Below are positions 14,538 through 64,000 of a stretch of DNA of 64,000 nt, piece after piece. The stretch lies in NCBI GenBank assembly GCA_964016885.1, contig OZ024754.1, positions 41,850,001-41,914,000 of the forward strand, written 5' to 3'. Positions within the stretch are counted from its first letter, which is position 1, and every line of letters starts with the position of its first letter. Source of the stretch: Eledone cirrhosa (taxonomy: Eukaryota). The translations under genes and the position numbers were made by a program. The notes below the pieces were generated by a model, which saw only the letters and a program-made list of their open reading frames with translations, was not told the origin of the DNA and ran no database searches.

Positions 14538-14593
<56 letters not shown>

Positions 14594-16462: not shown

Positions 16463-16531
<69 letters not shown>

Positions 16532-22500: not shown

Positions 22501-25500
22501 TGATAAAATGGACCCAGTCCTTCCTGTACAGAGGTAGTGCTGGTGTCATGATAAAATGGACCCAGTCCTTCCTGTACAGAGGTAGTGCTGGTGTCATGAT
22601 AAAATGGACCCAGTCCTTCCTGTACAGAGGTAGTGCTGGTGTCATGATAAAATGGACCCAGTCCTTCCTGTACAGAGGTAGTGCTGGTGTCATGATAAAA
22701 TGGACCCAGCCTACCCTGTAAGGTGGTAGTGCTGCTGCCATGATAAAATGCACCTAGTCCACCCTGTAAAGTGTTAATTCTGGTGTCATAATAAAATGCA
22801 CCCAGTCCATCCCGTAAAGTGGTTGTGGTGGTGGTGATGTTTGCTGCTGCTGTTGTTGTTGTTGTTGTAATAACATAGAACCTCTCTTTTCTTTAACTTT
22901 ACAGTATTCTGTCATCTGGCCAGCCGTATTCTTGATATTTCTGATGCTGAGCTGAAAATCACACCCAACCTTTCTATCACACTATTCCAATATTCACTTT
23001 TCTTCAGAAATGAAGGATTTGTTCTTGTTGACAAAATTATTGAAGAAAGTAAGTATGATTCATGACGATGATGATGATGGTTTATTTTAAGTGATTGATA
23101 TCTTCCAGGTGTGAAATGGCTTTATTACTTAACCCTTTAGTATTTACATTACTCTATATATACTATTGTATTTTCGCAATAAAGGATTTATCTCACATAA
23201 TATTGAATCTATGAGATTTTGATATTATTTATTTTGAGAACAATACTTTAACGTCAGTATGAGTGGCCAGTTATGACCAGTTTGAACAGAAAGAGGTGAG
23301 AGAATTCAAGCCAGTGATGGCCGGTTTAAATGTTAAAGAGTTAAAGTATATATTATATGATGTAGGCATCACATAATGTATCTATTATATAGTGCATCTG
23401 TTACATAACGTACCTATTGCATAATGTATCTATTACATAGTGCATCTGTTACATAGCATACCTATTGCATAATGTATCTATTACATAGTGCATCTGTTAC
23501 ATAGCATACCTATTGCATAATGTATCTATTACATAGTGCATCTGTTACATAACATACCTATTGCATAATGTATCTATTAAAGGATGTATTAGAGTAACGG
23601 CTCGTAGCCTAGGAGTTTCGATAGCTATGAATTATTGTTTTGTCTTGTCTCTTACTCCACAGACAGCACTTTGGCTTGTGTCAGACACTGTGACCCCAGG
23701 TGGGACAGCAGTACTGTTGGTAAGGGTCGAAACTGCCTAAGTTCATCTCAACGGTATTAATCAGGGTGGTGGAATGGCAGATTCAACAGTTTTAGTCCTG
23801 TAAAAGCCATGTTTATATCAAACATGATGTTTACACTCTACTAATGTATTGATTACCTTACTTATTATGGTTACCCCCCAATTGAACCTGGGACTCACAT
23901 ATATATATATGTGTGTGTGTGTGTAGGAAAAAAGTCAGTACCCCGACGGCTGAGCTCCAGCCGTTTCGATCTAGCTGTCAAAACAGCCGGAGCTCAGCCG
24001 TCGGGGTCCTGACTTTTTTCCTATTATCCACTCTACTACCCTAAGTATCGAGTATTCTGGTGTGTTATGATCCACCTAATATCTTACTACACTTTCTTTA
24101 TATTTATATATGTTAGTTAACCTATAGTTATTCAGTTATATGTTAATTAAAGTTAATTAATTTTTTTTAAATATTATTTTTGAAATGAAATGAAATCTAA
24201 TTCTTTACTTTCAGTTTCTATCAGTGATAAACTGTGTTCAGGTAATGCTGAGCTTGCCATTAGTTGTATAGAAAGACTTCATGGCAGTGTTGCCCCAGCC
24301 TTCTGTTTGAAAGTCCTTGGAACTCTGCTCATCTGTGATAACCAAGATATCAGGCAAGCTACTGGTGAGTGAGGTTGCTTGGAAATTCTATTTACAAATG
24401 TTAAAATAAACAATTCATTACTTCTCCTGAGTGTCAACTCAACTCTAATTGTTACTCTCTAACTTCTGAGTTACAATGTTTAGTTGCATGTTATATTCAT
24501 GAACTGGAAGAGTGAGGAAATGGGGAAACAGGGAGGGTACAGTATACCCTAGCTGTGATTCATGAACTGGAAGAGAGGGGAAGTGGGGAAACAGGGGGGG
24601 TACAGTATACCCTAGCTGTGATTCATGAACTGGAAGAGAGGGAGATGGGGAAACAGGGAAGGCACAGTAAACCCTAGCTGTGATTCATGAACTGGAAGAG
24701 AGGGGAAGTGGGGAAACAGGGAGGGTACAGTATACCCTAGCTGTGATTCATGAACTGGAAGAGAGGGAGGTGGGGAAACAGGGAAGGCACAGTAAACCCT
24801 AGCTGTGATTCATGAACTGGAAGAGAGTAAAATGGGGAGGGCACAGTAAACCTTAACTGTGCCGTGCAAACAAAATGGTGAAATTATTGCAACTACCATT
24901 TCTTTTCATGGGATTCCTTCTTCAAGCAAAATGCTTTCCTCATATTTTTGTGGAAGAAATTAGCTATAAATACTTACAGTGAGTGAACACCATTCGAGGC
25001 CCCTCTGGAGCAAGTGAGGGTGTTAAACCAATCTCAACTCACAATATCTATTAGACACAAGCTAATAAAGAATATATTATGTTGGAACAAATATCCCAAA
25101 GATTTTACCAGTTTATTTAATCTTGATGTTACTTTCGCTCTTCCATTTTTTTTCAGCATCCTACTTAAGGAATCTCCAGCAAAGCCGCCTCTCGCGTGAT
25201 AAGGTTTGTATTTCAGATGTCTTTCTTCTTATATGTTTTACCTTAGGATCTGTAGCATAATCATAACACCTGTAATTTAAGAGTTAACTAACTGTTAGCC
25301 ATTCATTTAGTGGTGTTCACATATTTAACCCTTTAGTTATGAAATAAAATCACCCATTTTAACCCTTTAGTTACCAACCCTGCCAAAACCACCTCTGGTT
25401 CTATGAAATAAAACCACCCATTTTAACCCTTTAGTTACCAACCCTGCCAAAACCACCTCTGGTTCTATGGCATAAAACCACCCATTTTAAAGGTTTCCGA

Positions 25501-26947
25501 TTTAAATTAAAATTTTCCAACATAATTTCATATAAGAACCTTACATTAAGTTACTATCTTAGTAATGAAATAATAATTTCAGTAAATCTCTTGAAATTCT
25601 TCATTAATTAATTAAAAAAGAGGGTGTTTCATTAGAAAGGAGGTCATGAAAAAGTTAAAAAGGAGGAGTAATATTATTTTTACTTTCCAAAGAAAGATGG
25701 GAGATAACTCTAGACATCTTTTATTTCTATTCTGACCAAGTCTTTGAATTGACAGAGTCGTTAGAACATCAGATAGAATGCCTTGTGGTATTTGTTTCAG
25801 CTCTCTGCTCTCTGAGTTCAAATCCCACCCAGGTCAACTTTGCTTTTCGTTCATTTGAGGTCAATGAATAAAAGTATCAGTTTAGTACTGGAGTCAATTC
25901 TTCCTCTATATCTCATTCTCTCTTCCTCTCTCTCTCACTCTCTATCCTTCTCTGGAAGAAATCTGCTGTATTCAGACCTGGAGAGGAAATAGGCTCTGCC
26001 AGGTTTTAAGAAAATACCCAAGAAACATCACGTCTGTACCAGTGCAGTCTGTTCCCTTGCTCCACACTACATCTTATTCCTCCTCTACACTATTACATAC
26101 CCAGCACATCATACTCACTTTATTTCCATCCCATTTAGTGTTCATGTGTTGGTACCATCCAACAGTAATATGGTGTTTGTTGTTATTACAGTCACTGGTG
26201 GTGTATGTTGAAGCTTTAGAAGACCAAACTGCTGAAGTACGGGCGGGAGCTGCTGTTGCTTTATCTCTCTTACGGGTAAATAACTTTTGACTTCTCTATT
26301 GTCATAGTTTATAGCACACACAACACATAAACACATATACACACAAACCTCACACACACAACCACAAATGCACACAAACACACCACATGCAAACATATAC
26401 ACACATTGACACACACAACTACCAAACACCACACACACAGACATGCGTACACACACAACCACAAACACCAGACATGCGCACACACACAACCACACAACCA
26501 CAAACACCACATACACACACACACAACCAGAAACCCACAAACACTAGACATGCACACACACAACCACACACACCAGACACACACACACACACACACAACC
26601 AGAAACACACACCACACTCCATATCAAACAGTGAGTGTAAAGCAAGCAATTAAATATAAAAACATATTGTACATGGAGTTGTTACCCCGAGCAATATTGT
26701 AGATTGAGGTAAGAAGTGTTACACCATTGTTGTTTATAATGTTGTTGTTGTCATTAGAATTCCAGTTAGAATATTATTTGTTGTTAGATTTGCAGGAGTT
26801 GAAGTTATTTGAGAGACAGCAGCAAGCATTTCATGTAAATATATATATATCATCATCATCATCATCTTCGTTTAACGTCCATCTTCCATGCTAGCATGGG
26901 TTATATATATATATATAAAGTAGGGAAAAGTGGACATAAAATGATGA

Positions 26948-45674: not shown

Positions 45675-46020
45675 ATGGGTATACGATTTAGTCAAGACCA
45701 GCAGGAAGCTGCCATGAAAGAAAACACTGAATATATCACTGACAAAGAACAAATTACAACTCTCTCTGCGACAGAAATCAGCTATTTAACACATATGTTC
45801 AAATTTGTCAACAATGACAGAAAGAAAGGTAAATTCTGTGACATGGTATTGTCATCTAGAAACCGTAATTTCAAGGCACATAGTACAATGCTTGCATGTA
45901 ATAGTTACATCTTTCGCCAAATAGTTGAGAAATTTTACAGTAACAAGAAGTATGTGACTATCCGTATGGATTCCATTAAACCAAACATATTTGAATTGTT
46001 GCTTGAGTACATATACACAG
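45675..46020 (+). CDS. BTB-BACK gene exon, BTB domain (MGIRF...LLLEYIYT)
   Basis: Acceptor ttccttag at 45669 (alternative at 45691); ATG at 45675; donor ACA G|gtaaga, phase 1. Confidence 0.88.
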
Positions 46021-49000
46021 GTAAGACACTTCTGTTTTTTGTAGTATTGTCTCCTGGGTATAGAACCAACACCACCTTTCCCTTGATCTAGAGTCCATCA
46101 CCCTCCCTCTTCCCCTTCCTATTCTTCTGTGACCCTAGAGCTCTTGTCCTTCCCTTCATTTTCCATTTTTAAATATTTGTAGAGTTGTTGTTATTTGAAA
46201 TAGATTTGTTTACGATTCAAATAATTGTAATTTGAAACAGTCTCACAAAATCTTCCAATGAAATACACAGTAATGTGGTTGTGTTGGTGACTTGACAAAA
46301 AGCACCCAATCTATTCTGTAAGGTGGTCGTGTTGGTGACTTGACAAAAAGCACCCAGTCAACACTGTAACGTGGTTGGTGTTAAGAAGGGTAACCAGCCA
46401 TAGAAACTAACCCAAAATACAGATCAGTATGAGCATGATGATGATGATGGTCGTGGTGGTGGTGGTGGTGGTGAGATGATAATGATATCCACTCTACAAG
46501 ACTTAGAAATAGACTGGTCAGGGAACCACGTCTTGTGTATATGTTCCATATTTTGGCATTGTTTTTATAGCTGGATGCCCTTCCTAGTGCAAACCACTTT
46601 ATAGAGTGTACTGAGTGTATTTTATTGTGACACCAGCACTACCACTTTACAGCATGTACTGGGTGTATTTTATTGTGACACCAAGCACTACCACTTTACA
46701 GAGTGTACTGGGTGTATTTTATTGTGACACCAGCACTAGAGAGGATATCATATAGGGAGCTGTGGTGTCATGTGATCAGATGGGGACTAACAGAGAATCT
46801 CTTTCTTCATTGACTATCGTAATGCATGAATGTGCCTTGGTGAATTCTAGGGAGACCTGAGAATTTCCAGAGTCTGGATAGGTAGAGTTTCATGGATTTA
46901 TGCCACTAGAGTGACATTTAGGGCAGGACTGGCAAAATAAGGGAATTTACATTTTCCTTTTCACATCTGCAACCACATATACATCGGAAAGAAGTTTAAA
47001 CAACAAAAAGTATTTTGTTAAATTTTATTTTTAGGTAAACTGTGTTTGAGAAAAACAGTAAAGAAGTTTAACCCTTTAGAATTTACATTACTCTATATTA
47101 ACTATTATATTTTCATGAAAAACACTTTATTTCACATGACTATTTTACATTATATTAAATCTACGAGAGCTTGATATTATTTTGAGAACAATACCTTAAC
47201 ATAAGTATGAGCAGCCAGTTACAGCTGGTTTGAACAGAAAAAGGTGAGAGAATTCTGGCCGGATATAGCCGGTTAAATTTGTTAAATTTTATTTTTATGT
47301 AACCTGTTTGATAAAAAACAGTAAAAAAGTTTAAACCTAAATGATTTTGTTAAATTTTATTTTTAGGTAAACTGTGTTTGAGAAAAAAGAATGTTGCTGA
47401 GGTTTTTATAGCTGCTACATATTTAAAGATGCCAAGTATTTGTGAACTCTGTATTAATTTCATTGATGATATGGATGTAGAACAAGCTTTATTAATAATT
47501 ACAACTAAAAACCTACCATGTTCAAATGATGTATTTCGTAAGGTTTATCATTTCATTGAAAATAACTTTCATAAAGTCTGTCAACACGAATTTTACCTGA
47601 ATATAGGAGTCATTGTTTTGTCAAGACTTTTGTCAAGTAATAACTTAAACGTAAAATGGGAACTGGAGGTGCTTGGCAACTTGCTAAAATGGACGTACCA
47701 TAGCTTCAAGGAGCGGGAGAGCTACTTTACAACACTCGTTAAATATGTTCGCTTCACCCAAATGACCCTCCAGGAATTACGCTATGCTTGTACCATGGCC
47801 AAACTATTTCCAGAATCCAGTGTCTGCCAAATTGTTGTCGTGGAAGCTGCTCGGTAACTGTTTGTTACTTAATACTTGTTTCATACACATTTGCAATGTT
47901 ACATTTGCTGCATACACATACACAAACATACACATACTCAAACACGCACACACACACACACACAACACACTTGCACACACACACACACACACACACACAA
48001 CAGACATACACACACATGTGCACACATACACACACATGCACACACACACACACAACAGACATACACACACACACACACAAACAGACATACACACATGGGC
48101 ACACACACACACATGTACATACATACACACACACGCACATATATGTATGCACATGAGGCTCTACATGTGAAAATATATAAACAGTCATGACAGAGAGAGA
48201 AGGGGGAGATAGAGAAGAAGTGAGAGAGAGAGTGAGAGCCAGCATGGTTCCAGAGCTGACCCACCACCCCCTTGACCAGAACCCTAGACCTTCAGGTATT
48301 ACAGATACCCTCTGGCACTTCAGTAGTTCATCCCATTACATAAAAAAATCTTGACAGGCCCCTAGCACCTACTGGAACCCTAGACACCCCATGTCAATTT
48401 GACAGGGCTCTAGACACCCCATGTCAACTTGACAGGCCTTTAGACACCCCACACCCATGTCAATTTGACAGGCCCCCAGACACCCCATGTCAATTTGACA
48501 GGCCCCTGGCACCTGCTGGAACCCTAGACACCCCATGTCAACCTTAGACTGGATCATACGGTCTATAATGGTTGACATCAAAGTTGAATGATAGTTCATA
48601 ATCATTTTCAACACATCTAGTAGCAGTTCTATATAGTTAGGTCCCCATGAGGTACAAGGTAAATATAGAACATCTAGTAGCAGTTCTATATAGTTAGGTC
48701 GCCATGAGGTACAAGGTAAATATAGAACATCTAGTAGCAGTTCTGTATAGTTAGGTCGCCATGAGGTACAAGGTAAATACAGAACATCTAGTGGCAGTTC
48801 TATATAGTTAGGTCCCCATGAGGTACAAGGTAAATATAGAACATCTAGTAGCAGTTCTATATAGTTAGGTCGCCATGAGGTACAAGGTAAATAGAGAACA
48901 TCTAGTAGCAGTTCTATATAGTTAGGTCGCCATGAGGTACAAGGTAAATACAGAACATCTAGTGACAGTTCTATATAGTTAGGTGACATGAGGTACAAGG

Positions 49001-52000
49001 TAAATAGAGAACATCTAGTAGCAGTTCTGTATAGTTAGGTGACATGAGGTACAAGGTAAATATAGAACATCTAGTGACAGTTCTATATAGTTAGGTGACA
49101 TGAGGTACAAGGTAAATAGAGAACATCTAGTAGCAGTTCTGTATAGTTAGGTGACATGAGGTACAAGGTAAATATAGAACATCTAGTGACAGTTCTATAT
49201 AGTTAGGTGACATGAGGTACAAGGTAAATATAGAACATCTAGTGGCAGTTCTATATAGTTAGGTGACATGAGGTACAAGGTAAATATAGAACATCTAGTG
49301 ACAGTTCTATATAGTTAGGTGACATGAGGTACAAGGTAAATATAGAACATCTAGTGGCAGTTCTATATAGTTAGGTGACATGAGGTACAAGGTAAATAGA
49401 GAACATCTAGTGACAGTTCTATATAGTTAGGTGACATGAGGTACAAGGTAAATATAGAACATCTAGTGGCAGTTCTATATAGTTAGGTGACATGAGGTAC
49501 AAGGTAAATAGAGAACATCTAGTAGCAGTTCTGTATAGTTAGATGCCATGAGGTACAAGGTAAATAGAGAACATCTAGTGGCAGTTCTATATAGTTAGGT
49601 CCCCATGATGTACAAGGTAAATACAGAACATCTAGTGACAGTTCTATATAGTTAGGTGACATGAGGTACAAGGTAAATATAGAACATCTAGTGGCAGTTC
49701 TATATAGTTAGGTCCCCATGAGGTACAAGGTAAATACAGAACATCTAGTGGCAGTTCTATATAGTTAGGTGCCATGAGGTACAAGGTAAATACAGAACAT
49801 CTAGTGGCAGTTCTATATAGTTAGGTGACATGAAGTACAAGGTAAATACAGAACATCTAGTGGCAGTTCTATATAGTTAGGTGACATGAGGTACAAGGTA
49901 AATATAGAACATCTAGTGGCAGTTCTATATAGTTAGGTGCCATGAGGTACAAGGTAAATATAGAACATCTAGTGGCAGTTCTTTATAGTTAGATGACATG
50001 AGGTACAAGGTAAATACAGAACATCTAGTGGCAGTTCTATATAGTTAGGTGACATGAGGTACAAGGTAAATACAGAACATCTAGTGGCAGTTCTATATAG
50101 TTAGGTGACATGAGGTACAAGGTAAATATAGAACATCTAGTGACAGTTCTATATAGGTGACATGAGGTACAAGGTAAATACAGAACATCTAGTGGCAGTT
50201 CTATATAGTTAGGTGACATGAGGTACAAGGTAAATACAGAACATCTAGTGGCAGTTCTATATAGTTAGGTCCCCATGAGGTACAAGGTAAATACAGAACA
50301 TCTAGTGGCAGTTCTATATAGTTAGGTGACATGAGGTACAAGGTAAATACAGAACATCTAGTGGCAGTTCTATATAGTTAGGTGACATGAGGTACAAGGT
50401 AAATACAGAACATCTAGTGGCAGTTCTATATAGTTAGGTCCCCATGAGGTACAAGGTAAATACAGAACATCTAGTGGCAGTTCTATATAGTTAGGTGACA
50501 TGAGGTACAAGGTAAATACAGAACATCTAGTGGCAGTTCTATATAGTTAGGTGCTATGAGGTACAAGGTAAATATAGAACATCTAGTGACAGTTCTATAT
50601 AGTTAGGTGACATGAGGTACAAGGTAAATATAGAACATCTAGTGACAGTTCTATATAGTTAGGTGACATGAGGTACAAGGTAAATACAGAACATCTAGTG
50701 GCAGTTCTATATAGTTAGGTGCCATGAGGTACAAGGTAAATACAGAACATCTAGTGGCAGTTCTATATAGTTAGGTGACATGAAGTACAAGGTAAATACA
50801 GAACATCTAGTGGCAGTTCTATATAGTTAGGTGACATGAGGTACAAGGTAAATATAGAACATCTAGTGGCAGTTCTATATAGTTAGGTGCCATGAGGTAC
50901 AAGGTAAATATAGAACATCTAGTGGCAGTTCTTTATAGTTAGATGACATGAGGTACAAGGTAAATACAGAACATCTAGTGGCAGTTCTATATAGTTAGGT
51001 GACATGAGGTACAAGGTAAATACAGAACATCTAGTGGCAGTTCTATATAGTTAGGTGACATGAGGTACAAGGTAAATATAGAACATCTAGTGACAGTTCT
51101 ATATAGTTAGGTGACATGAGGTACAAGGTAAATACAGAACATCTAGTGGCAGTTCTATATAGTTAGGTGACATGAGGTACAAGGTAAATACAGAACATCT
51201 AGTGGCAGTTCTATATAGTTAGGTCCCCATGAGGTACAAGGTAAATACAGAACATCTAGTGGCAGTTCTATATAGTTAGGTGACATGAGGTACAAGGTAA
51301 ATACAGAACATCTAGTGGCAGTTCTATATAGTTAGGTGACATGAGGTACAAGGTAAATACAGAACATCTAGTGGCAGTTCTATATAGTTAGGTCCCCATG
51401 AGGTACAAGGTAAATACAGAACATCTAGTGGCAGTTCTATATAGTTAGGTGACATGAGGTACAAGGTAAATACAGAACATCTAGTGGCAGTTCTATATAG
51501 TTAGGTGCTATGAGGTACAAGGTAAATATAGAACATCTAGTGACAGTTCTATATAGTTAGGTGACATGAGGTACAAGGTAAATACAGAACATCTAGTGGC
51601 AGTTCTATATAGTTAGGTCCCCATGAGGTACAAGGTAAATACAGAACATCTAGTGGCAGTTCTATATAGTTAGGTGACATGAGGTACAAGGTAAATACAG
51701 AACATCTAGTGGCAGTTCTATATAGTTAGGTGACATGAGGTACAAGGTAAATACAGAACATCTAGTGGCAGTTCTATATAGTTAGGTGCCATGAGGTACA
51801 AGGTAAATATAGAACATCTAGTGGCAGTTCTATATAGTTAGGTGACATGAGGTACAAGGTAAATATAGAACATCTAGTGGCAGTTCTGTATAGTTAGGTG
51901 ACATGAGGTACAAGGTAAATATAGAACATCTAGTGGCAGTTCTGTATAGTTAGGTGCCATGAGGTACAAGGTAAATATAGAACATCTAGTGGCAGTTCTA

Positions 52001-55000
52001 TATAGTTAGGTGCCATGAGGTACAAGGTAAATATAGAACATCTAGTGGCAGTTCTATATAGTTAGGTGACATGAGGTACAAGGTAGGGAATATAGAATTC
52101 AGCATCCTGCTCAGATTTAACAACTTAACCCTTAACCATTCACATTACTCTATATATACTATTATATTTTCATGGTAAAGGTTTTATCTCACATATCAAA
52201 TCTATGAGATTTTGAAAGTATTTATTTTGAGAACAATACCTTAACATCAGTTTGAGTAACCAGTTACAGCCAGTTTCAACAGAAAAAGGTAGAGAATTTT
52301 GGCCGGTTTGAACATTAAAGGGTTAAACCATTTTCGCAAATTTGGTCTTAGGGCCGAAACACTCGCTTGGGGGTAGTGGTGGTTCTCCTCAGAGACCTGC
52401 TGTCCAGCTCTCCTGAGATTTCCTTCTCTGAAGACCTGCTGTCCAGCTCTCCTGAGAGTTTCTTCTCTGAAGACCTTCTGCTGTCCCCCTCTCCTGGGAG
52501 TTTCTTCTCTGAAGACCTTCTGCTGTCCAGCTCTCCTGAGAGTTCCTTCTCTGAAGACCTTCTGCTGTCCAGCTCTCCTGGGAGTTCCTTCTCTGAAGAC
52601 CTTCTGCTGTCCAGCTCTCCTGGGAGTTTCTTCTCTGAAGACCTTCTGTTGTCCAGCTCTCCTGGGAGTTTCTTCTCTGAAGACCTTCTGCTGTCCAGCT
52701 CACTTGAGAGTTCCTTCTCTGAAGACCTGCTGTCCAGCTCTCCTGGGAGTTTCTTACCACTGATGAATACCATAGTCAGTGTCCCATGTTATTTCTTGTT
52801 GATAAATTAGTTATTAGTAAATCAGTGGTGCAATTTGTATTAATGTTGAGCTCCAACAACTTCTCTATCAGACAGAGACATCAGCTACTGAGGGGTGACA
52901 GAATTCACCTGAGAGATCAACCAAGAAATGTTTTTCAAACAGCTGATAATAAATTAACAGAGGTAAGAATTAAATAATTCTTCTAATACCACATAACTAC
53001 TGCTTTCTTCTTCTTGCCTTCTTCTTCTTCTCCTCCTCCTCCTTCTTCCAGTGGGTCCTGTCAGAAGCGACCATCTCCAATTGATCTGGCTACATCCCCA
53101 AGAAAGACTATTAGAGCTCATGGATGTTATCCAACCATCTTGCTCTGGGTCTCCTGCTGGTTTGTTTTGCCTGTAAAATCTGTCCAGTGATTCTCTCCTG
53201 AGACACTTTAACCACATGCCCTTAATATCGGAGCTGTGATCTCTCAATTTGGTGAAGTAGCAGTTCTACCTGGAGTGACTCATTGATCTCTCAGCTACAT
53301 ACTCTATTAAGTAACATTACTCCAAAGACACTTCAGAGGAACACAATTCGGCCACTTGTAAAAGCACTTTTAAAATCCAGTTTGTTATTTGCAGTCATGC
53401 AAAAAACACCTCTGGTATCATCATCATCATTTTACGTCCGCTTTTCCCTGCTTGCAAGGGTGGGACGGGTCTTATTCAGCACAACATCTCTCCACTCGTC
53501 ACGGTCCTTCGTCATGTGTGTGTATATATATTTGTATTTGTATTTTAGCATAGTGATGTTGAAACATGTGAGAAATTCACAAATACTGAAGCTGATTTAG
53601 AATTCACCTCATTTGATGAGCTCATTCTACCCCAAGAGATCAACATTGATCTTACTAATCAAGAGGTAAGTTTATTATATTTTGATATCTTTTATCTAAC
53701 TACGTCTGTAGGGAATTTATTATTAAATCCACTTTTTGAAAATCCACCTCAAACTGCCTCAGGGTTTTATGAAACAAAACCTCCTATCGTGGGTGTGCAG
53801 AGGGAGGGCATTTCATGGGTGTGCATTATTTCTCCTTTGTGTGTGTGTGTGTATATATATATGTGTGTGTCTGAGAATTGTTTTTGTAAATCTTCTTCTT
53901 TGTGTACGTACATGTTTGTGCATGCTTATGTATGTGTGTGAGTGCGGGTGTGTTTATGTGTGCGTGTGTGTATAAATATATACATGTATATATATTTTAT
54001 GATCATCAACCAAGCATCCTAGTCATTATGTCACCTGCCTTCACATTTATACATCTATCTATCTAGGGCGAGTAAAATTCCCGAGATCCATGAACGAGTT
54101 CTCTCCAGCGGTCTCTGTCCCTCATTATCGCTGCCATGTCCAGCATCTCCAACAGACCAGTGTCTGTCCTTAGAACATCAACATATGTTAATCTCGGTCT
54201 TCCTCTTCCAGTGTGTCCATGCAGGGACTCCCACAGGAGCACTGAGTGCAGTGTCAACTCTGGATGTCGGTGAGAATGTCCAGCTAAAGCTAAAGTTTGG
54301 TGGTGCTTGTTTCTTGTGGTCATTTACTGCTTGCTGTCCCAGTGCAGCTGCTACATATAAAGCCTATATTCTAGCAATGTTACATGGTAGTGAGACATGG
54401 GTGCTGTCTCTAGAAGACTTGCATAGATTAGAAAGAAATGAAGCCTGCATACTCCGATGGATGTGTAATAGTAATATACGCGAACGGCAAAGCATAAACG
54501 AATTGAGAGAGAGAGAGACTGAGCATAAGAGGAATCAAATGTTGCGTGCAGGAGAGGAGGTTGTGTTGGTATGGACATGTGATGCGTATGAAGGATGACA
54601 GCTGCATAAAAAGGTGCAGAGCCCTAGAAGTCGATGGAAGCCACGGAGTGGGGGAGACCCAAGGAGACCTGCAATGAGGTGATAAAAACCAACCTTACCC
54701 AATTGCACCTCTCAAGGGCGATGACACATGACTGTGACCTCTGGCGTCATGCAGTAATACAGAAGACCCGACTTCCCATGGGTACAAGCCGAAGCTGAAG
54801 GATATAGACAATATGCCCCCACCGCCTCCCACTGCAAAGTGGTCATGGAGGCGCCACGGCAAAAAAGCACCCAGCACTCACTGTAAATGAGGTTGGTGTT
54901 AGGAAGGGCATCCAGCTGTAGAAATCAAGCCAGAATCAGTTCCTGTATGAGCAAGACAAGGTCAGCCCACTGGACACTGCCCACAACAGGACAACCCGTC

Positions 55001-58000
55001 TAACCCATGCTAGCGTGGGAGAACGGACGTAAAACGGTGATGATGATATTATTTTCAGGATAGTGTTAAATATCTAGCTGATGGTAATGAAGTAAAAACA
55101 GGTAATAGATCTCCAAATATGAGACGTTCTTTAACGCTTCCTTCATCCAGAGAATGTACCCAGTACACATTGTAGGGTGCTAGTGATGGCGCCCCAATAG
55201 AATAAACCCAGTACATTGTAAAGTAGTAGTGATGGTTTCATATTTGTCCCATGAGCACTGGAACAAATGGTATCAACTTTAATTACTGAAACTATAAGGA
55301 TTTCCACAAATTGGCTGAAGAGAAGGGACTATCCATGATTTTTTCGTTGTCTGTCTTGTGCATTACTTTTTTGATTGATATAATATATATTTAGTTACAG
55401 GATAGTTATAAATATGGTGTGGCTGATAATGAAAGGGAAATATGTTATAGAAGTCACAATATGACACCTGCTTCAGCCTCTACTTCATATACAGACACCA
55501 ATCAGTCTGAAGTGTTCAATATATATCTTCCTGGACAAAATCAGGTAGGTTTATATTCTTGACATAAATGAATATCCCACCATACATATACGTCAAGGTT
55601 AAATGTTGGATATTGTAGATACATTTGTCAACCTAAGTAGCACCCTATCCAGGTTTAAAGTCCTTGATGAGGAGTGTTGGACATTGTGGATATATTAGCA
55701 TATATTAAGGTCCTGTCCTTGATGAGGAATGTTGGATATTGTGGATACTTTGTCTAGCTAAGTAGTACTCTATCCAGGTTTAATGTCCTTGATAAGGAAG
55801 TCAATTATAGACTTTCCAAGTCGATCTTTCCAGGGCAGAGTTGATTAAATCAACCCCAGTAGTTGACTGGTACTGCATTTTATCAAACCCAGACGGATGA
55901 AAGTCAAAGTCGACCTCAGCAGGATTTGATCTCAATAAAGAGCCGAAATAAATGCTGCTATGGCATTTGATCCGACGCTCTACCAATTCTGCCAATCCAC
56001 CAGCCTTTATATGTACTGTATCATGTGGCTTTGATCCTCAGAAGCTGAATCCTTAGGAATTCCCTTCCCAGCCACCAAGTTTTCACTGTAGATGTTGCCT
56101 TAAAACTGCTGAAGCTGAACATCAATCAGATGAATTTAACCAGTCTCAGAGGAAAGCTTGTGATAGTTATGGGCACATCCTTTGACTGCCACTCAAACCC
56201 CCCAAAATGAGCTGAAACTGTAAGGTAAACCATTGAATATCCTTGATACATTGTAATGAGGTTAGGAAGGGCACCCAGTACACTCTGTAAAAGGGGGTTA
56301 CTGTTAGGAAAGACATCCAGCCATAGAAATCTTGCCAAACATGGAGTTGAGGGGATTTGCACAACAAGCTGGTGCTGGTGCCATGACAATATAAACCCAA
56401 TACATTCTCTAAAGGGGTTGAGGAGAACATCTAGCCATAGAAATCTTGTTAGACATAGGCTTGAGAGCACACTTCAGTTGTGTCTAGGGCACAACAACCT
56501 CCCTCGTGTTGGTGCCATAATAAAATGAACCCAGTACATTCTGTAAAGTGTAGCAATGTACTTAAGCCTCTAATCAGTCAAGGATGACAGTGGCTTTGAT
56601 TGTGTATTGATTTGATCTGTGACAACCTGTCCAACCCATGCTAGCATAGTAAACAGATCTTAAACAAGGATAATAATGATGATTGTAAAACTGATATATC
56701 TAATATTGCTAAATGATATGCCTAATTTACTTCTCAAAGAATTCTTCATGAAACGAGACATCTTGAAATGATTAATGACTATAAAACCACTTGCATAGTT
56801 TTTTACCTTTCTAAATTATAAAAATAAAATTTTTTATTTTCTTAAAAATTCAATTATATTTAACTAATTTTATTTGTAAATTCAGTTTAAAATATTGTTT
56901 TCATTGTAAACTTTTTCTATTTTCTAGTGTGCCAACAATGTTTTGGAAGACTATATTCAATCCAACTCATGTGCATTAGAGCTAAGTGCTGGAGAATCAT
57001 CTATGACTAATATTAAATCAAGTCGTGTTACTAAGGTTGTACGTTTTAAGCTAGACTCAAAGGCAGATCGTAAAAACTGTCGGCTTTCACCAAATGTTTT
57101 CGATGGCAGTTTTTATTTCAAGGGAAATTCAGTGAAGACGAGATCTATTCTGCATAACTCTTCAATTCAGCTCAAAGAGAGAGATGAGAAGAAGCAACTA
57201 GAAAATGAAATAGTTCTAAAGAGAGAAAAAGATTTCAATAAATTACCATTAGGTTTGCTTAAAGAGATTTTAGAGGTACCTAATCAATTACAGGTTAATT
57301 CTACCACAGGATTAAAGTCTGTCGCATCAAAATATAAAGCAATAATTCATGGCAACTCCATTCAAGAGGTTGTGGCACCTGTTTTCGTGGAAAAAACAGC
57401 TTCTGTTTTACCTAGTAATAGAAGCCATCAGCATGTCAGCTTATCTCCTTGTGTTTCCAATCAATTGGATTGTACTAGACCAGAAATGGCACTACTCCAT
57501 TCTGACAAGAATTCAAAATGGTTTACAAATAAAATTAAAACAATCTTTAGACAGACAAAACAAATGAACTTCAGAATTAAACAACACTCTAGAAGACATT
57601 TGATCAGCAAATCTAACAAAACAAAAATTAATAAAATATTAAAAAATCTCCATAAAAGGACTTCATGTGTTTCTTGTATATCTGGCAAGCAGAGGGTATC
57701 AGGATTTCTCAAAGACTTAACACTAAAACCCAATGTAGTTATTGGAGGTGCTGCAAACTATTTGATCGACTATGAGAAACATTTTCCATTCACTTCAGAT
57801 GTTACTTGCAGAAAACTGTTATGTTACTATCGTAATATGAATACGAGGACAGGAGGAAATTATGATAGGGTAAAATACATAAAAGGTGGATTTTCTAGCG
57901 GTGTGCTTGCAAACAGTGAAACTAGTTCAGAAGCAGAATCGGATATAGATGAAAATTTTAATAACGACTATGGTAGCAAACATAAGTTTGTATTAAAACA

Positions 58001-61000
58001 TATTTCTGAGGCAGAGAATGAGGAAGAGGAAGAGGAGGAGGAGGAGGAAGAGGAAGATGGTGCTAAAGCTGAAAATATGGAATCTCTTCCACCACTAAAA
58101 AAACGTGACACAATCCGCTTAATACAAACAAATTCAAAATTAGAAGCCAATGCACCCATTCCAGACATACACAAGGGAGCTTTTTATGGAACTGATATCT
58201 CTATAACTGCTGGAGATGACATGATGTCTCCGGCAACAAATATGACTTCTGCTTATATCTGGGAAAAAGAATCTGAGTCAAAGCCGGTAATTATGATGAA
58301 AAACACTGACTTTAATTATAAACTACCCAATGTTTGTTCTGTCATTGCATCAGTAGAAGGACCGAACTCTAATGTTCTTAATCTAACTTCATACCTTACT
58401 CAGAGACGTAATTCTGTTGATGTATGTACAGACTTATTAAAACTTGCACATAAGAGAGCCACACCAAAGAAAAGTTTTTCTGCTGAATCAATATGTGTTT
58501 GGGAAGAAAACCTGGAGAAAAGTATTTGCGAGGCTGCTGAAAAGTCTAAATATAAAGTTATATTCAATAAAAAATCTTCAAAAGCTTCGATGACATACAC
58601 TGCTGAATCGGAAAACAAAATTCCCCAAATAGATAAGAACGACAAAAATAATTCACAGAATAATAAATATGATCTGTCAAAAAAAGGTCCCTTAAACGAA
58701 ACAAATGTAAATCCTCGTTATAATATAGAGATTTCTATTAACAATAACCCAGATGGTTTGAGCAACGTTGAAGGTGAGGATGGTGATAGCACAAACCAAG
58801 TGGGAACTTTGGATCCTGACAGCAACCAGCCGCACACTTCGTCTTCTAAAATGGTGGTAAGACATTATCTTCTTCTTCTTCTTCTTCTTCTTCTTCTTCT
58901 TCTTCTTCTTCTTCTTCTTCTTCTTCTTCTTCTTCTTGCCTTCTTCTTCTTCGTCGTCGTCGTTGTCGTCTCTTCCTCCTTTTTCCAGTGGGTCCTGTCA
59001 GAAGCGACCATCTCCAATTGATCTGGCTACATCCCCAAGAAAGACTATTAGAGCTCATGGATGTTATCCAACCATCTTGCTCTGGGTCTCCTGCTGGTTT
59101 GTTTTGCCTGTAAAATCTGTCCAGTGGTTCTCTCCTGAGACACTTTAACCACATGCCCTTAATATCGGAGCTGTGATCTCTCAATTTGGTGAAGTAGCAG
59201 TTCTACCTGGAGTGACTCATTGATCTCTCAGCTACATACTCTATTAAGTAACATTACTCCAAAGACACTTCAGAGGAACACAATTTCGGCCATTTGTATT
59301 CGCGAACGTATTTTTGGGGGCCATTGCTCAACACTCATGGCCATAAGTAAGAATTGGTATGAAGATTGTGAGTTTGGCTTTTACACCTGCCTCTCTTTTT
59401 CTGATGACTGGATGCTAAAGCTGATGCATTTCTGTACCAGTCGCTGCAATTCCTGCACTTAACTCATCCTCCTGCCTTCCATCACTTGTAAACACGGCTC
59501 TGAGATAATTGAACTTCTCCAGCTGCTTCTGTGGAATTCCACTCACATGTAGAGTGCACTGTGCAGGCTTCCTTGAGAAGATGAGTGTCGCTGTCTTCAC
59601 AACATTGTCGTGCAGCACTTTTAAAATCCAGTTTGTTATTTGCAGTCATGCAGAAAACACCTCTGGTGTGTGTGTGTATATATATATTTGTATTTGTATT
59701 TTAGCAGAGTGATGTTGAAACCTGTGAGAAACACACAAATACTGAAGCTGATTTAGAAGTGACCTCATTTGATGAGCTCATTCTACCCCAAGAGATCAAC
59801 ATTCATCTTACTAATCAAGATGTAAGTTTATTATATTTTGATATCTTTTATCTAACTACGTCTGTAGGGAATTTATTATTAAATCCACTTTTTGAAAATC
59901 CACCTCAAACTGCCTCAGGGTTTTATGAGTTTTATGAGTTTTATTAATAGTGTCAATTCCCCTTAATTTTATTTTTTCTGGAGATTCATGTTAAATTTAT
60001 AGTGCATCTTATATGGAGACACATGGCTTAGTGGTTAGAGCATTGGGCTTGCAATCGAAAGATTGTGAGTTGAATTCTCAGACTGGATGATGTGATGTTT
60101 CCTTGAGCAAGACTCTTTATTTCACATTGCTCCAGTTTACTCAGCTGTAGAAATGAGATGATAGGGACTGGGGTCCCTATCGTTCCACTGTAAAGTGGTC
60201 GTGGGGGTGCCACGGCAAAAAAGCACCCAGCCCACACTGTAAATGAGGTTGGTGTTAGGAAGGGCATCCAGCTGTAGAAATCAAGCCAGAATCAGTTCCC
60301 GTCCCACCCTTGCAAGCAGGGAAAAGCAGACGTAAAATGATGATGATGATGATGATATCATCATCATCATTTAACGTCTATCTTCCTCACTAGCATGGTT
60401 TAGATGAGTTTGTCCCATTTGAGGCAAGTTGGGTCGAGTGACCATGTCTTGCTCATATAGGACTGTTTCTGGCTGGTTTTCTATGACTGAATGCTCTTCC
60501 TAATGCCAACCACTTTACAGTGTGGGCTGGGTGCTTTTTGCCGTGTCTCCTACATGATCACTTTACAGTGTGGGCTGGGTGCTTTTTGCCGTGTCTCCTA
60601 CATGATCACTTTACAGTGTGGGCTGGGTGCTTTTTGCCGTGTCTCCTACACAACCACTTTACAGAATAAGGGTGGTGGTAATTTTCTTCCTATCACTTCT
60701 ACAGGCCAACATACTTCTAGCCACTGATTTCTGTCCTTTGAGGTAATTTTTACCCAACGTTGTTACTGATGGCATTTTGCTGTTTTAACAGCTATTCTTA
60801 TGTTGAGTTTTTCTCATTATTCTATGTGAGTATCATCATCATCATCATCATCACCGTTTTACGTCCGTTCTTCCACGCTAGCATGGGTTAGACGGGTTGT
60901 CCTGTTGTGGGCAGTGTCTGGTCGGCTGACCATGCCTTGCTCATACAGGAACTGATCTGGCTTGATTTCTACAGCTGGATGCCCTTCCTAACACCAACCT

Positions 61001-63647
61001 CATTTACAGTGAGTGCTGGGTGCTTTTTCGTGGCGCCTACACGTCCACTTTACAGTGTGGGCTGGGTGCTTTTTTGCCGTGGCACCTCCACGACCACCTT
61101 GCGGTGGGGGGGGGGGGCATATTGTTTATATGCTTCAGCATGTACCCATGGGAGGTCGGGTACCCTGTATTACTGCGTGACGCCAGAAGTCACGGTCGTG
61201 TGTCATTGACTTTGAGAGGTGTAGTTGGGTAAGGTCGGCTTTTATCACCTCATCCCAAGTCATCTTGGGTCTCCCCACTCCGCGGTTTCCATCAACTTCT
61301 AGTGCTCTGCACCTTTTTATGCAGCTGTCATCCTTCATACGCATCACATGTCCATACCAGCGTAACCGCCTCTCCTGCACGCAGCATTTGATTCCTCTTA
61401 TGCTCAGTCTCTCTCTCAATTCATTTATGCTTTGTCGTTCACGTATATTACTGTTACACATCCATCGGAGCATGCAGGCTTCGTTTCTCTCTAATCTACG
61501 TAAGTCTTCCACCTTCAGCGCCCAGGTCTCACTACCATGCAACATCGCTGTTCGGATACACGCATCATACAGTCTGCCTTTCATTCTGAGGGAGAAGCCT
61601 TTTGCAGCTAGCAGTGGTAGTAGTTCCCTAAACTTCTTCCATCCCGTTCTTACCCTAGTTATTGTACTTTCTGAGCACCCACCTCCGTTGCTAATTCGGT
61701 CACCTAGGTAGCAGAAGCTGTCTACTGTTTCTACAGGGCCCTCCCAGAGATTGGTGGTACTTGTTTCCTGTGGCTGTTTGCTTGCTGTTTCAGCACAGCT
61801 GCTGCATGTGAATCCTACATTCTTAATTAAGCTTCCTGAGATCCCGCTACATCTCTTGTGTACCCATTGTTTGCATTTGGGGCAAAGAATGGAGTTCCTA
61901 CCTACACCTTTCCTACATACTGAGCAAGGCCATTTCCCTGAGGGGATCTGGGTTCTGTTTTCTCGTCTACTTATAAGGACCTTAGTCTTTGTCATGTTGA
62001 CTTTGAGGCCCTTTCTCTCTAGTCCCTGCTTCCAGGTTTGGAATTTATTCTCTAGTTCTACCATAGATTCAGCTATGAGTGCGAGGTCATCAGCATACAG
62101 GAGTTCCCATGGGCATCCGGTCTTAAACTCCTCCGTTATTGCCTGCAGGACTATGATGAACAGGAGAGGGCTAAGAACAGAGCCCTGGTGGACCCCAACC
62201 TGTACGCTAAATTCCTCGCTATACTCATTGCCAATCCTAACTTTGCTGACTGCTCCCCTATACATGGCTTGTACCGCTTTCACAAGCCATTCATCTACTC
62301 CTAGTTTTCTAAGAGCCCACCAGATTACTGCACGTGGAACTCTGTCAAAGGCTTTCTCAAGGTCGACAAATGCCAAGTAGAGTGGCTTACTTTTAGCTAG
62401 GTACTTTTCCTGTAATTGCCTCACAAGGAAGAGCGCATCAGTGGTGCCTTTCCCTGGAACAAACCCAAATTGCATCTCGTCTATATTCACCCGGTCCCTA
62501 ATCAGCTGTGCTATAACTCTTTCTGTTACTTTCATGACCTGGTCCATCAACTTTATACCTCTATAGTTTCCTCTATCTAGTGCATCGCCTTTACCTTTGT
62601 AGCAGTTGACAATGATGCTACTGCACCAATCTTTTGGTATGGCCCCCTCTAGTATTACCTGGTTAACGATACGTGTGGTTATAGTGTGACCTACAGACCC
62701 AGATGCCTTCAGCATCTCGGCAGCTATACCCGATGGACCGGTTGCCTTCCCTATCTTCATATCTCTGATTGCCTTACTTACTACGCTGCCGCTGACTTGT
62801 ACTGCTGGTCCCTCTATAGGGTCTACGTGGGGTAGGGTCTCTTCTTCCCATGCATTCTCCTCATTTAGTAATCTATCATAATGACTCTTCCATGCATCTT
62901 TCTTCTCAGCACTTGTGAGGGCAAGCTCACCTTTATCATTCCGGATACACTTCTCTCCAATGACATCACAACTATCTCTGACACACTGCCTCGCAATCTT
63001 GAATACCTCCTGTTTCTGGTCCTCACGTTGTAAAACATGCTTGAATTTTCTATCCTCTGCTTCCCTCCTAGCTAAGTATACTTGTCGCCTAGCTTCCCTC
63101 TTGGTCTCTATGTAATGTACCCTGCTCCCCCCGTTCTTCCATTCTTTCCATGCCTGTCTCTTGGCCTTGACTGCTTCATCTACCTTATTGTTCCACCACC
63201 AAGTCACTCTCCTCCTGCTTGAGGTCTTACTCCAGCCACAAACCTCATCCGTCGCCTCTAGTAAGTTATTTTTTAGGAACTCCCAGTTCTCTTCTACGTT
63301 AAATTAGTATATATATATATATAAATGAGTATATATATATATATATATATGAAGAATAAAAACACCATGTTATTTATTCATTCTGACGACTGAAGACAGA
63401 TAAATATCTGCCTTCAAGAAACCACTGGTAAATGAAATAATTATCTTATGTTGTTTATTACATAACTCTCTCTCTCTATATATATATATATATATCCTTT
63501 TAGGGTAAACTTAAGTACTTTGTGGTTGGTAATGAAGTGGAAAAATATAACAAATCTACAAATACTGAACCTGATTCAACAACTGCTCCCTCCAGAGACT
63601 CTAGTGGACCCCATGAGATCAACTTAAGCCTTCATGAAAGTGAACAG
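45675..63647 (+). CDS. BTB/POZ-BACK domain protein (kelch-like N-terminus) with long low-complexity and repeat-exon C-terminal region; 3'-partial, about 1125 aa in window
   Basis: BTB motifs (KFCDMVL..F.AH..MLACNS.IF; FELLLEYIYTG.L....NV..V..AA.YL.M) are followed by BACK motifs (FIENNF..V...EFY.....L..LL.S..LNV..E.EV....LKW....ER....LVKYVRF..M). Downstream exons join with consistent phases. Confidence 0.8.
47367..47853 (+). CDS. BTB-BACK gene exon, BTB end plus BACK domain (GKLCLRKKNVAEVF...VVEAA)
   Basis: ttttag|GT AAA...GCT CG|gtaact; 487 nt, phase 1-2. Confidence 0.9.
48611..52084. repeat. 56/57-bp satellite array (about 62 copies) in a BTB-BACK intron
   Basis: Unit aacatctagtggcagttctatatagttaggtgacatgaggtacaaggtaaata(t/c/g)ag. 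Confidence 0.97.
52387..52755. repeat. 42-bp (some 39-bp) minisatellite (about 9 copies)
   Basis: Unit ctctgaagaccttctgctgtccagctctcctgggagtttctt; produces spurious open frames on both strands. Confidence 0.9.
52872..52962 (+). CDS. BTB-BACK gene exon (RQRHQLLRGDRIHLRDQPRNVFQTADNKLTE)
   Basis: tatcag|A CAG...GAG|gtaaga; 91 nt, phase 2-0; EA...H...PR pattern typical of the post-BACK linker. Confidence 0.8.
53549..53665 (+). CDS. BTB-BACK gene repeat exon A (HSDVETCEKFTNTEADLEFTSFDELILPQEINIDLTNQE)
   Basis: ttttag|CAT...GAG|gtaagt; 117 nt, phase 0-0, open. Confidence 0.75.
54056..54330 (-). mobile_element. 3' end of a second RTE-like family with (TAGA)n tail; another copy at about 1865-1985 (+)
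   Basis: LAGHSHRHPE...LLWES.HGHTGRGRPRLTYVD.LRTDTGL...MRDRDRWRELV; near-identical to 1865-1970. Confidence 0.8.
54350..55047 (+). mobile_element. Degenerate 3' fragment of the same RTE family
   Basis: AMLHGSETW...RLERNEAC.LRWMCNSNIRERQSINELRE with frameshifts; same 3' UTR and (TGA)n tail as the 60834-63300 element. Confidence 0.9.
55059..55155 (+). pseudogene. Truncated or disrupted copy of the repeat exon (DSVKYLADGNEVKTGNRSPNM...SSRE)
   Basis: Acceptor tttcag|GAT; similar to the exons at 55401 and 63504, but runs into an RTE 3' UTR-like motif and a stop with no in-phase donor. Confidence 0.5.
55401..55544 (+). CDS. BTB-BACK gene repeat exon (DSYKYGVADNEREIC...NIYLPGQNQ)
   Basis: ttacag|GAT...CAG|gtaggt; 144 nt, phase 0-0, open. 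Confidence 0.72.
56928..58856 (+). CDS. BTB-BACK gene large exon (643 codons; K/S/N-rich, poly-Glu)
   Basis: ttctag|TGT...ATG GTG|gtaaga; 1929 nt open, phase 0-0; the core of track ORF 56943-59021. Confidence 0.82.
58868..59615 (-). mobile_element. Third RTE-like family 3' fragment with (GAA)n tail; related pieces at 53003-53355, 975-1062, 5680-5790, 18170-18260, 28780-28935
   Basis: Minus strand reads LEKFNYL..VFTSDGRQEDE...IERSQLR..GHV...ILQAK...[11 protein letters not shown] with stops. Confidence 0.8.
59705..59821 (+). CDS. BTB-BACK gene repeat exon B (QSDVETCEKHTNTEADLEVTSFDELILPQEINIHLTNQD), duplicate of exon A
   Basis: ttag|CAG...GAT|gtaagt; 117 nt, phase 0-0; NAGNAG acceptor (tagcag). 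Confidence 0.7.
60834..63300 (-). mobile_element. RTE-clade LINE, 5'-truncated (no endonuclease domain), with intact RT frame, 3' UTR and (TGA)n tail
   Basis: Frame is open 63300-61135; RT motifs YRGIKL, QFGF, AFVDLEKAFDRV, GVHQGSVLSPLLF, YADD; RTE C-terminus RRLRWYGHV...GRPKMTW; (TCA)n at about 60833-60853. Confidence 0.95.
61135..63300 (-). CDS. RTE LINE ORF fragment: reverse transcriptase plus C4HC3 PHD-type finger
   Basis: The 690-aa track ORF extends upstream in frame by 31 codons (NVEENWEFLKNNLLEATDEVCG...) to the truncation point. Confidence 0.92.
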   Translation of the reverse strand, partial: NVEENWEFLKNNLLEATDEVCGWSKTSSRRRVTWWWNNKVDEAVKAKRQAWKEWKNGGSRVHYIETKREARRQVYLARREAEDRKFKHVLQREDQKQEVFKIARQCVRDSCDVIGEKCIRNDKGELALTSAEKKDAWKSHYDRLLNEENAWEEETLPHVDPIEGPAVQVSGSVVSKAIRDMKIGKATGPSGIAAEMLKASGSVGHTITTRIVNQVILEGAIPKDWCSSIIVNCYKGKGDALDRGNYRGIKLMDQVMKVTERVIAQLIRDRVNIDEMQFGFVPGKGTTDALFLVRQLQEKYLAKSKPLYLAFVDLEKAFDRVPRAVIWWALRKLGVDEWLVKAVQAMYRGAVSKVRIGNEYSEEFSVQVGVHQGSVLSPLLFIIVLQAITEEFKTGCPWELLYADDLALIAESMVELENKFQTWKQGLERKGLKVNMTKTKVLISRRENRTQIPSGKWPCSVCRKGVGRNSILCPKCKQWVHKRCSGISGSLIKNVGFTCSSCAETASKQPQETSTTNLWEGPVETVDSFCYLGDRISNGGGCSESTITRVRTGWKKFRELLPLLAAKGFSLRMKGRLYDACIRTAMLHGSETWALKVEDLRRLERNEACMLRWMCNSNIRERQSINELRERLSIRGIKCCVQERRLRWYGHVMRMKDDSCIKRCRALEVDGNRGVGRPKMTWDEVIKADLTQLHLSKSMTHDRDFWRHAVIQGTRPPMGTC
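63504..63647 (+). CDS. BTB-BACK gene repeat exon (GKLKYFVVGNEVEKYNKSTNTEPD...PHEINLSLHESEQ)
   Basis: ctttag|GGT...CAG|gtaagt; 144 nt, phase 0-0. Confidence 0.75.
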
Positions 63648-64000
63648 GTAAGTTATGAGCTTCTAGATGAAGCCCTTCAAACTGGAAGTATGTATTGTCT
63701 ATGATGATGGTTAACAGGTTTCAGGTATCTGAAGTTGTGAGACAGAAGCAGATCTCTAGAATCAACATAAATGAGATACATAGCAATTGAAATCATCAGA
63801 GATGATATGGTCAGTTGTTAAGTTGACAGGAGGGCAGGTACTGAAGTGCAGAGGGAAACAACATCCTAACTAAAAAGGTGTTGATTCTGTTTAAGTACAG
63901 ATGTGTTAATTACTTTGTTAGAGCTGTCAACGTTTGGGGGAAGATGTGAAGTAAGGTTTTAAGACATTTGAATAGAAGCTCACCTCATCAGGTGTGTTTA

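Follow-up and report, generated by a model that had tools for sequence, protein, structure and literature searches.

The window analysed here is the whole stretch of 64,000 nucleotides from Eledone cirrhosa (NCBI GenBank assembly GCA_964016885.1, contig OZ024754.1, positions 41,850,001 to 41,914,000 of the forward strand), and the gene under study encodes a BTB-BACK protein with a tail made of a long exon, predicted to be mostly disordered, and of short repeated cassette exons, which are named below by their first position. Eight exons (Table 1: exons 1 to 3, cassettes 53549 and 55401, the long exon, cassettes 59705 and 63504) could be joined into a chain of 1125 codons with 0 stops. In the translated product the BACK domain lies directly C-terminal to BTB; exon 1 is 59% identical to Octopus bimaculoides, and exon 2, which carries BACK, is 70-72% identical to the orthologues of O. 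bimaculoides, O. vulgaris and O. sinensis. The cassette and long exons named in an earlier note on this DNA (53549, 55401, 56928, 59705 and 63504) were confirmed, all having AG/GT ends and phase 0-0, and the 91-nt exon joining BACK to the downstream exons had been overlooked in that list. The TAA at 47855-47857, previously regarded as a read-through stop at which transcripts might end, sits inside the splice donor of exon 2 and provides no evidence of a transcript end.

The cassettes were compared using a profile hidden Markov model (HMM) trained solely on 24 Octopus units, the window cassettes not being in the training set. The five window cassettes, including the broken copy 55059, ranked 1-5 of 1899 six-frame window segments (E 2e-8 to 0.045; next match 0.87), which places them in one repeat family, beyond chance. 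At the DNA level, 7 of the 10 cassette pairs were more similar than all 500 codon shuffles, among them 55401 and 63504 (500/500), the exceptions being 53549-55059, 55059-59705 and 53549-55401 (1/500). Cassette 63504 is 40% identical to one O. bimaculoides unit, and the unit ends Y-V-V-x-G and E-I-N-I-D-L are both conserved over an overall identity of 40%. In the motif proposed earlier as common to the cassettes, the 'KY' part is restricted to 55059, 55401 and 63504, as 53549 and 59705 are without the first nine or so residues. These two proved to be copies of one intron-plus-exon block and hence not independent repeats. The description of 55059 as a broken copy holds: it has an acceptor but no donor to match, and about 32 codons lead into a dispersed repeat and a stop; a remnant of its 3' third beyond the insertion is at best marginal (7/300 shuffles equally good). 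The long exon and the cassettes gave no Pfam match, and a search for the combination of repeat and tail among shorter proteins gave 0 matches among the 8000 candidates scored.

Table 1. Features of the BTB-BACK gene and its introns, with positions counted from the first letter of the window.
Feature	Position	Strand	Properties
Coding exon 1	45675..46020	+	start M-G-I-R-F-S (Gly2/Ser6) and most of BTB; ends in phase 1; Pfam PF00651, E 9e-18
Coding exon 2	47367..47853	+	end of BTB and BACK domain; phase 1-2; Pfam PF07707, E 2e-15; donor CG/GTAACT
Intronic tandem array	48613..52085	.	56-bp unit, ~62 copies (95% match); takes up most of intron 2
Exon 3	52872..52962	+	91 nt, phase 2-0; post-BACK linker ending in P-R-N; from splice sites and frame; tblastn against Octopus proteins, E 9e-6
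Duplicated block	53005..53772	+	cassette exon with intron on either side, plus microsatellite and retroelement fragment; duplicate of 58927-59928; self-BLAST 94.6% and 96.5%
Short cassette, 39 aa	53549..53665	+	117 nt, phase 0-0; upstream of long exon; 8 nt and 5 residues different from 59705
Broken cassette	55059..55154	+	5' two thirds of unit, then dispersed repeat; in-frame stop 55173-55175
Full cassette, 48 aa	55401..55544	+	144 nt, phase 0-0; upstream of long exon; repeat HMM E 2e-6
Long exon	56928..58856	+	1929 nt, 643 aa, phase 0-0; largely disordered by prediction; a basic block followed by an acidic one; conserved motifs around residues 420-548
Short cassette, 39 aa	59705..59821	+	117 nt, phase 0-0; tandem TAG/CAG acceptor
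Intronic LINE-type retroelement	61135..63303	-	Pfam RVT_1 E 5e-32, PHD E 8e-6; outside the gene's coding sequence
Full cassette, 48 aa	63504..63647	+	144 nt, phase 0-0; last exon within window; repeat HMM E 2e-8

When query residues 1-1193 were searched against 1.84 billion cluster representatives, only 6 proteins were obtained at E <= 1e-30, namely the Octopus cluster, an adjacent pair from Argonauta hians, two clusters of an octopod paralogue and a single short protein, and a profile search added one further short protein to this subfamily. The Octopus orthologues of three species (LOC106876992 in O. bimaculoides, LOC118765495 in O. sinensis and CAI9729897 in O. vulgaris; 1394-1768 aa) consist of BTB, BACK, linker, a region matching the long exon (42% identity), a run of 11-13 units, each 42-54 residues long, and a tail rich in Cys. 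Since these units and the Cys-rich tail follow the long exon in Octopus, the gene very likely continues beyond the window end (position 64000). The architecture is common to octopods and not confined to the window genome, whose one special trait is that cassettes also precede the long exon (three in the window genome, none in the Octopus models or the Argonauta model). In the Argonauta protein (P0023) the match to the long exon is followed by a 14-residue repeat and by Gln/Cys-rich repeats, some of which may be tandem DNA absorbed by the gene predictor.

Combinatorial splicing of the phase-0 cassettes had been suggested from the window, and the varied combinations in the O. sinensis gene models give this good support, not clean, as the models are predicted and contain one chimeric-looking unit. 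The 14 O. sinensis RefSeq isoforms drop 1, 2, 4 or 5 whole units, swap one unit, end early or start later, and among the three O. bimaculoides isoforms each difference amounts to 54 residues. Predicted RefSeq isoform models draw mainly on short reads. A search of sequencing runs with 56900-59850 listed no RNA run for this sequence; three unlabelled runs from a single sample and study contained 83-88% of its words, may be the source of the assembly and were not taken as support. Among the O. bimaculoides units, four show 89-93% similarity to one another and 81-85% to their best O. sinensis match, and one O. vulgaris unit is only 76% identical to any O. sinensis unit, yet the first 960 residues are ~100% identical (rounded). 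Such species-specific, near-identical units, together with the recent 53549/59705 copy in the window, bear out the earlier idea that the tail grows by exon duplication. A literature search by LOC and protein identifiers and by topic, which excluded subscription journals and supplementary expression tables, found no paper on the gene; an octopus testis paper (PMC6341066) was set aside as a description of it, the subject, as given there, being the 546-codon KLHL10, another gene.

A kelch propeller was not found within the window up to its last position, and the full-length Octopus orthologues contain 0 blades both by Pfam and by our own kelch HMM, which also gave 0 blades in the Argonauta and paralogue proteins and 5-6 in relatives. 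The propeller, which the earlier note described as either replaced or displaced, is hence replaced, as the full-length Octopus proteins have no kelch and their nearest relatives carry it. In the phylogeny the kelch-less subfamily forms one side of a branch with a Shimodaira-Hasegawa-like approximate likelihood ratio test (SH-aLRT) value of 99 and is joined (97) to a mostly lophotrochozoan, KLHL-like sister group (23 rows in the tree); a second tree used 53 of 157 rows, the rest being omitted for run time, and rooting was at the midpoint. In the sister group, whose named members are bivalve, gastropod, chiton, brachiopod and, in one case, arachnid, 10/25 rows have at least 3 kelch blades (9/11 among members of at least 550 aa). 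The simplest reading of these alignments and trees is that kelch would have been lost from a kelch-bearing ancestor. Four short relatives (P0022, P0170, P0171 and P0201) end just past P-R-N, may be exon-bounded fragments and were not counted as kelch-less. Linkers between BACK and the first blade measure 30-190 residues in the sister group, which suggests that the space after BACK was already expanding. In two of its rows (P0032 and P0101) this region holds IQ-like motifs.

The protein had previously been read as a Cullin-3 adaptor, an assignment which is weakened by the lack of a phi-x-E contact motif in the window, the subfamily and the kelch-bearing sister group. The motif was scanned as a Glu 8-12 residues after the anchor Phe with a hydrophobic residue two before the Glu; it was absent in 10/10 subfamily rows, representing about four independent lineages, and in 25/25 sister rows, and was present in 92/121 other matches. 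Exon 1 of the window has Y-S-N at the place of KLHL3 M83-S84-E85, O. bimaculoides has S-N-H opposite KEAP1 L115-R116-E117 in a gapless alignment, and the position of KLHL3 A77 is occupied in the subfamily by Q, N or R. Each of the KLHL3 substitutions E85A, A77E and M78V is described as severely disrupting Cul3 binding (PMC3616122). By its motif, the window gene would not be classed as a KLHL-type Cul3 substrate receptor, and the usual recruitment of Cullin-3 is probably lacking. A non-canonical Cul3 substrate adaptor, which would bind through the 3-box and altered contacts and whose repeats would pick substrates or set reach, is rather unlikely. Both BTB and BACK are intact, and their conservation is high (O. 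bimaculoides and O. sinensis agree at 97%), the best solved relatives are KEAP1, KLHL3 and KLHL11, and some Cul3 receptors, KCTD proteins among them, bind without phi-x-E according to the source cited (PMC13061254). The 3-box region aligns with KEAP1, KLHL3 and KLHL11, the Pfam BACK match beginning only at model position 14-15. Against a plain Cul3 adaptor stand the missing motif, the bulky residue at the A77 position, the lack of a folded substrate domain and a conserved M-G-x-x-x-S start.

This start is present in the window protein and in every subfamily protein checked save O. sinensis isoform X3 (11/13 proteins, at residue 1 or, in two proteins, at an inner Met; positions 3-5 vary). Its carriers comprise orthologues, the paralogue and short relatives, and it occurs in 3/144 of the other matches. 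M-G-x-x-x-S is the N-myristoylation consensus. Isoform X3 (P0019) starts at Met41 and so is without the Gly2 signal; at that place Met is likewise present in the window, and Ile in O. bimaculoides. We propose, with about an even chance of being right, that the gene encodes a membrane-anchored, self-associating BTB-BACK scaffold in which splice-variable repeats set the number of partners. N-myristoylation at Gly2 would anchor the protein to a membrane, BTB dimerisation would give self-association, and the predicted-disordered tail would display a splice-variable number of repeats as binding sites; with usual Cullin-3 recruitment probably lacking, the product would be a scaffold rather than a protein-disposal adaptor.

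The recent history of the cassettes was followed in the duplicated block, for which global alignment of 53005-53772 with 58927-59928 gave a 317-bp gap and an insertion of ~95 bp. The 53549 and 59705 exons differ at 8/117 bases (6.8%), 7 of them non-synonymous, and the aligned intron flanks at 3/511 (0.6%; exon versus intron, Fisher p 1e-4). Abalone sperm genes reportedly show a similar pattern. The excess in the exon may reflect diversifying selection on the duplicate, or else the flanks may have been converted and the exon differences protected, and in either case both copies would be translated; alternative causes would be a polishing artefact or conversion by a third copy lying outside the window. 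Flanks that are converted while exon differences stay protected are described as 'islands of divergence' (PMC3728101). The copy pair offers a small, testable sign of selection. The block begins right behind two different donors (52963-52985 and 58857-58879), both reading GTAAGA(C)ATTA, and the homology may reach the exon-intron edge, which would fit duplication of the long exon together with the cassette and then loss of the first long exon.

In a distinctly unlikely alternative, a functional head carries a weakly constrained spacer tail: exons would be made and lost through unequal recombination among intronic repeats, the isoforms would amount to splicing noise, and the cassettes before the long exon would be unspliced leftovers. 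It would account for the introns rich in retroelements and microsatellites, the already broken upstream copy 55059, the variation of unit number and sequence between close species, the unrelated repeat tails in a paralogue and in Argonauta, and the confinement of cassettes before the long exon to the window genome. Faster divergence of exon than of intron is not expected for unspliced copies, 53549 and 55401 retain frame and both splice sites, and the two unit ends have been kept over 40% overall identity.

The earlier description of the long exon as disordered is supported, short of proof, by FoldIndex and by a low predicted local distance difference test (pLDDT) score. FoldIndex was negative in 57-63% of long-exon windows, ~80% of repeat windows and 3% of those for BTB-BACK; AlphaFold gave a pLDDT of 27.6 for the long exon (5-row alignment) and a mean of 41 for the cassette repeats (five models 27-41, single-sequence), both from shallow input. 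The serine content of the Ser-rich tail of the window protein is 11%. In the window and in Argonauta the conserved block ends with an RVxF-like motif, which the two Octopus proteins tested lack; PP1 docking is not claimed. A structural polymer, whose repeats would stack as beta-strands across the junctions (solenoid or amyloid-like, with metal at CxxC in Octopus) and whose cassette number would set rod length or filament cross-linking, is quite improbable: in the single-sequence model each unit does form a long strand that spans the junction (local pLDDT 50-69), and both unit ends have an alternating hydrophobic pattern, against which stand the low mean pLDDT, no fold match at E <= 0.001, the FoldIndex values of the repeat windows and the missing CxxC in the window species. 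That the cassettes arose as decayed kelch blades is very improbable, for although K-Y-V-V-V-G-G and V-E-K-Y resemble kelch strands by eye and the HHalign score of 11.4 lies just over 100/100 column shuffles (maximum 11.0), the HHalign probability is 2.6% over only 6 columns, the kelch HMM gives <=6 bits on any unit and Pfam has no kelch match at E <= 5.

Several observations weigh against the membrane-anchored scaffold, or against parts of it. The KCTD case means that the absence of phi-x-E is no proof against Cul3 binding, and BACK apparently keeps its 3-box helices. The kelch-less subfamily lies on long branches which, with the midpoint root and the possibly fragmentary short members, limit what can be said of kelch loss. 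The Argonauta orthologue is represented by two adjacent gene models, GAB1609683 and GAB1609682, split after BACK, and its tail has no match to the repeat HMM; the window cassettes lack the CxxC found in most Octopus units. Among the isoforms, X10 contains a unit with the look of a two-unit chimera, and RefSeq isoforms of near-identical repeats can be a product of read mis-mapping. The exon-over-intron excess depends on 8 changes and falls to p = 0.011 under a conservative count (codon events, ragged microsatellite edge), and non-synonymous versus synonymous change within the copied exon is not significant (p = 1). Searches by structure and in the ESM Atlas were uninformative and bring no help: Foldseek of the predicted models gave 0 matches at E <= 0.001 among the 39 listed, the cassette repeats had no usable match in the ESM Atlas, and 'GLC7-interacting protein 1', a sub-threshold lead there (0.77), was rejected as a relative of the long exon. 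A much fuller version of the scaffold, namely a myristoylated, Cul3-independent germ-cell scaffold with Dscam-like repeat exons under diversifying selection, cassettes currently arising to either side of the long exon, and coding sequence outrunning introns more than 10-fold, would have only a small probability.

Other features lie in the introns and upstream. A 68-bp copy (91% identical) of the start of exon 2, acceptor included (46988-47055 versus 47323-47387, covering the first codons), lies 330 bp upstream and runs into a stop, and the 56-bp array is followed by a second one (42-bp unit, 8.7 copies, 52397-52755). The fragment of a long interspersed nuclear element (LINE) on the reverse strand has 722 open codons, with the PHD finger in the region after the reverse transcriptase, and an inverted piece at 54373-55047 is 83% identical to its 3' part. 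Exons of an upstream FAM65/RIPOR-like gene were found at 13636-26290 on the forward strand (13636-14046 matches Pfam PL48 at E 5e-21; a further two frames were tried without a Pfam match).

Taken as a history, the locus presents a traceable domain replacement, in which the Cul3 motif was apparently lost first, being absent in kelch-bearing relatives, and kelch afterwards, a lipid-anchor signal was gained, and different repeat tails were subsequently built in separate octopod genes and species. The cassette array is a direct test case of whether exon duplication and splicing yield functional diversity in cephalopods. It also advises caution in naming, as BTB-BACK alone is insufficient for 'kelch-like' or 'Cul3 adaptor', the current database names being actin-binding IPP and kelch-like protein 20.

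The closest counterparts are the Octopus orthologues, annotated yet uncharacterised, which share BTB-BACK, linker, long exon and repeat family with the window gene and differ in having the linker joined straight to the long exon and units mostly with CxxC, some of 54 aa. The Argonauta hians orthologue has the same BTB-BACK, linker and long exon with other repeats in its tail, and the octopod paralogue (LOC118763563 / CAI9723123) belongs to the same subfamily, with the M-G-x-x-x-S start, no kelch, no phi-x-E and a repeat-rich tail, the latter being a Glu/Gly-rich short repeat unrelated to the cassettes. With the KLHL adaptors (KEAP1, KLHL3, KLHL11) and the lophotrochozoan branch (Pecten XP_033745875, Gigantopelta XP_041350070) the gene shares the BTB-BACK fold, the post-BACK linker to P-R and ancestry. 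Unlike the KLHL adaptors, it has no kelch, no phi-x-E (missing in the lophotrochozoan branch too), a myristoylation-type start and a long disordered and repeat tail, and for want of a kelch propeller it is not a member of the KLHL / KBTBD class.

A likeness of another kind is to PEI-1 of C. elegans, in which, by the account cited, BTB-BACK stabilises sperm granules, a disordered region has the Argonaute WAGO-3 as its client, and PEI granules are tied to membranes through S-palmitoylation, which is required for granule transport; BTBD7 (predicted myristoylated), BTBD18 and GMCL1/Gcl are named there as PEI-1-like (10.1101/2020.12.10.417311). Both proteins combine BTB-BACK with a disordered region (predicted here), no kelch, a lipid anchor (putative here) and a Ser-rich tail. 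PEI-1 is described as nematode-specific by sequence and the same account mentions no cassette array; the likeness is proposed at the level of architecture rather than orthology, and a role of the octopod protein in germ cells or sperm would be a guess by analogy. BTB-BACK with a disordered tail is already known, and what is new in the window gene is the replacement of kelch by putatively alternatively spliced, still-expanding cassettes, in a protein that lacks phi-x-E and whose lipid-anchor signal is conserved.

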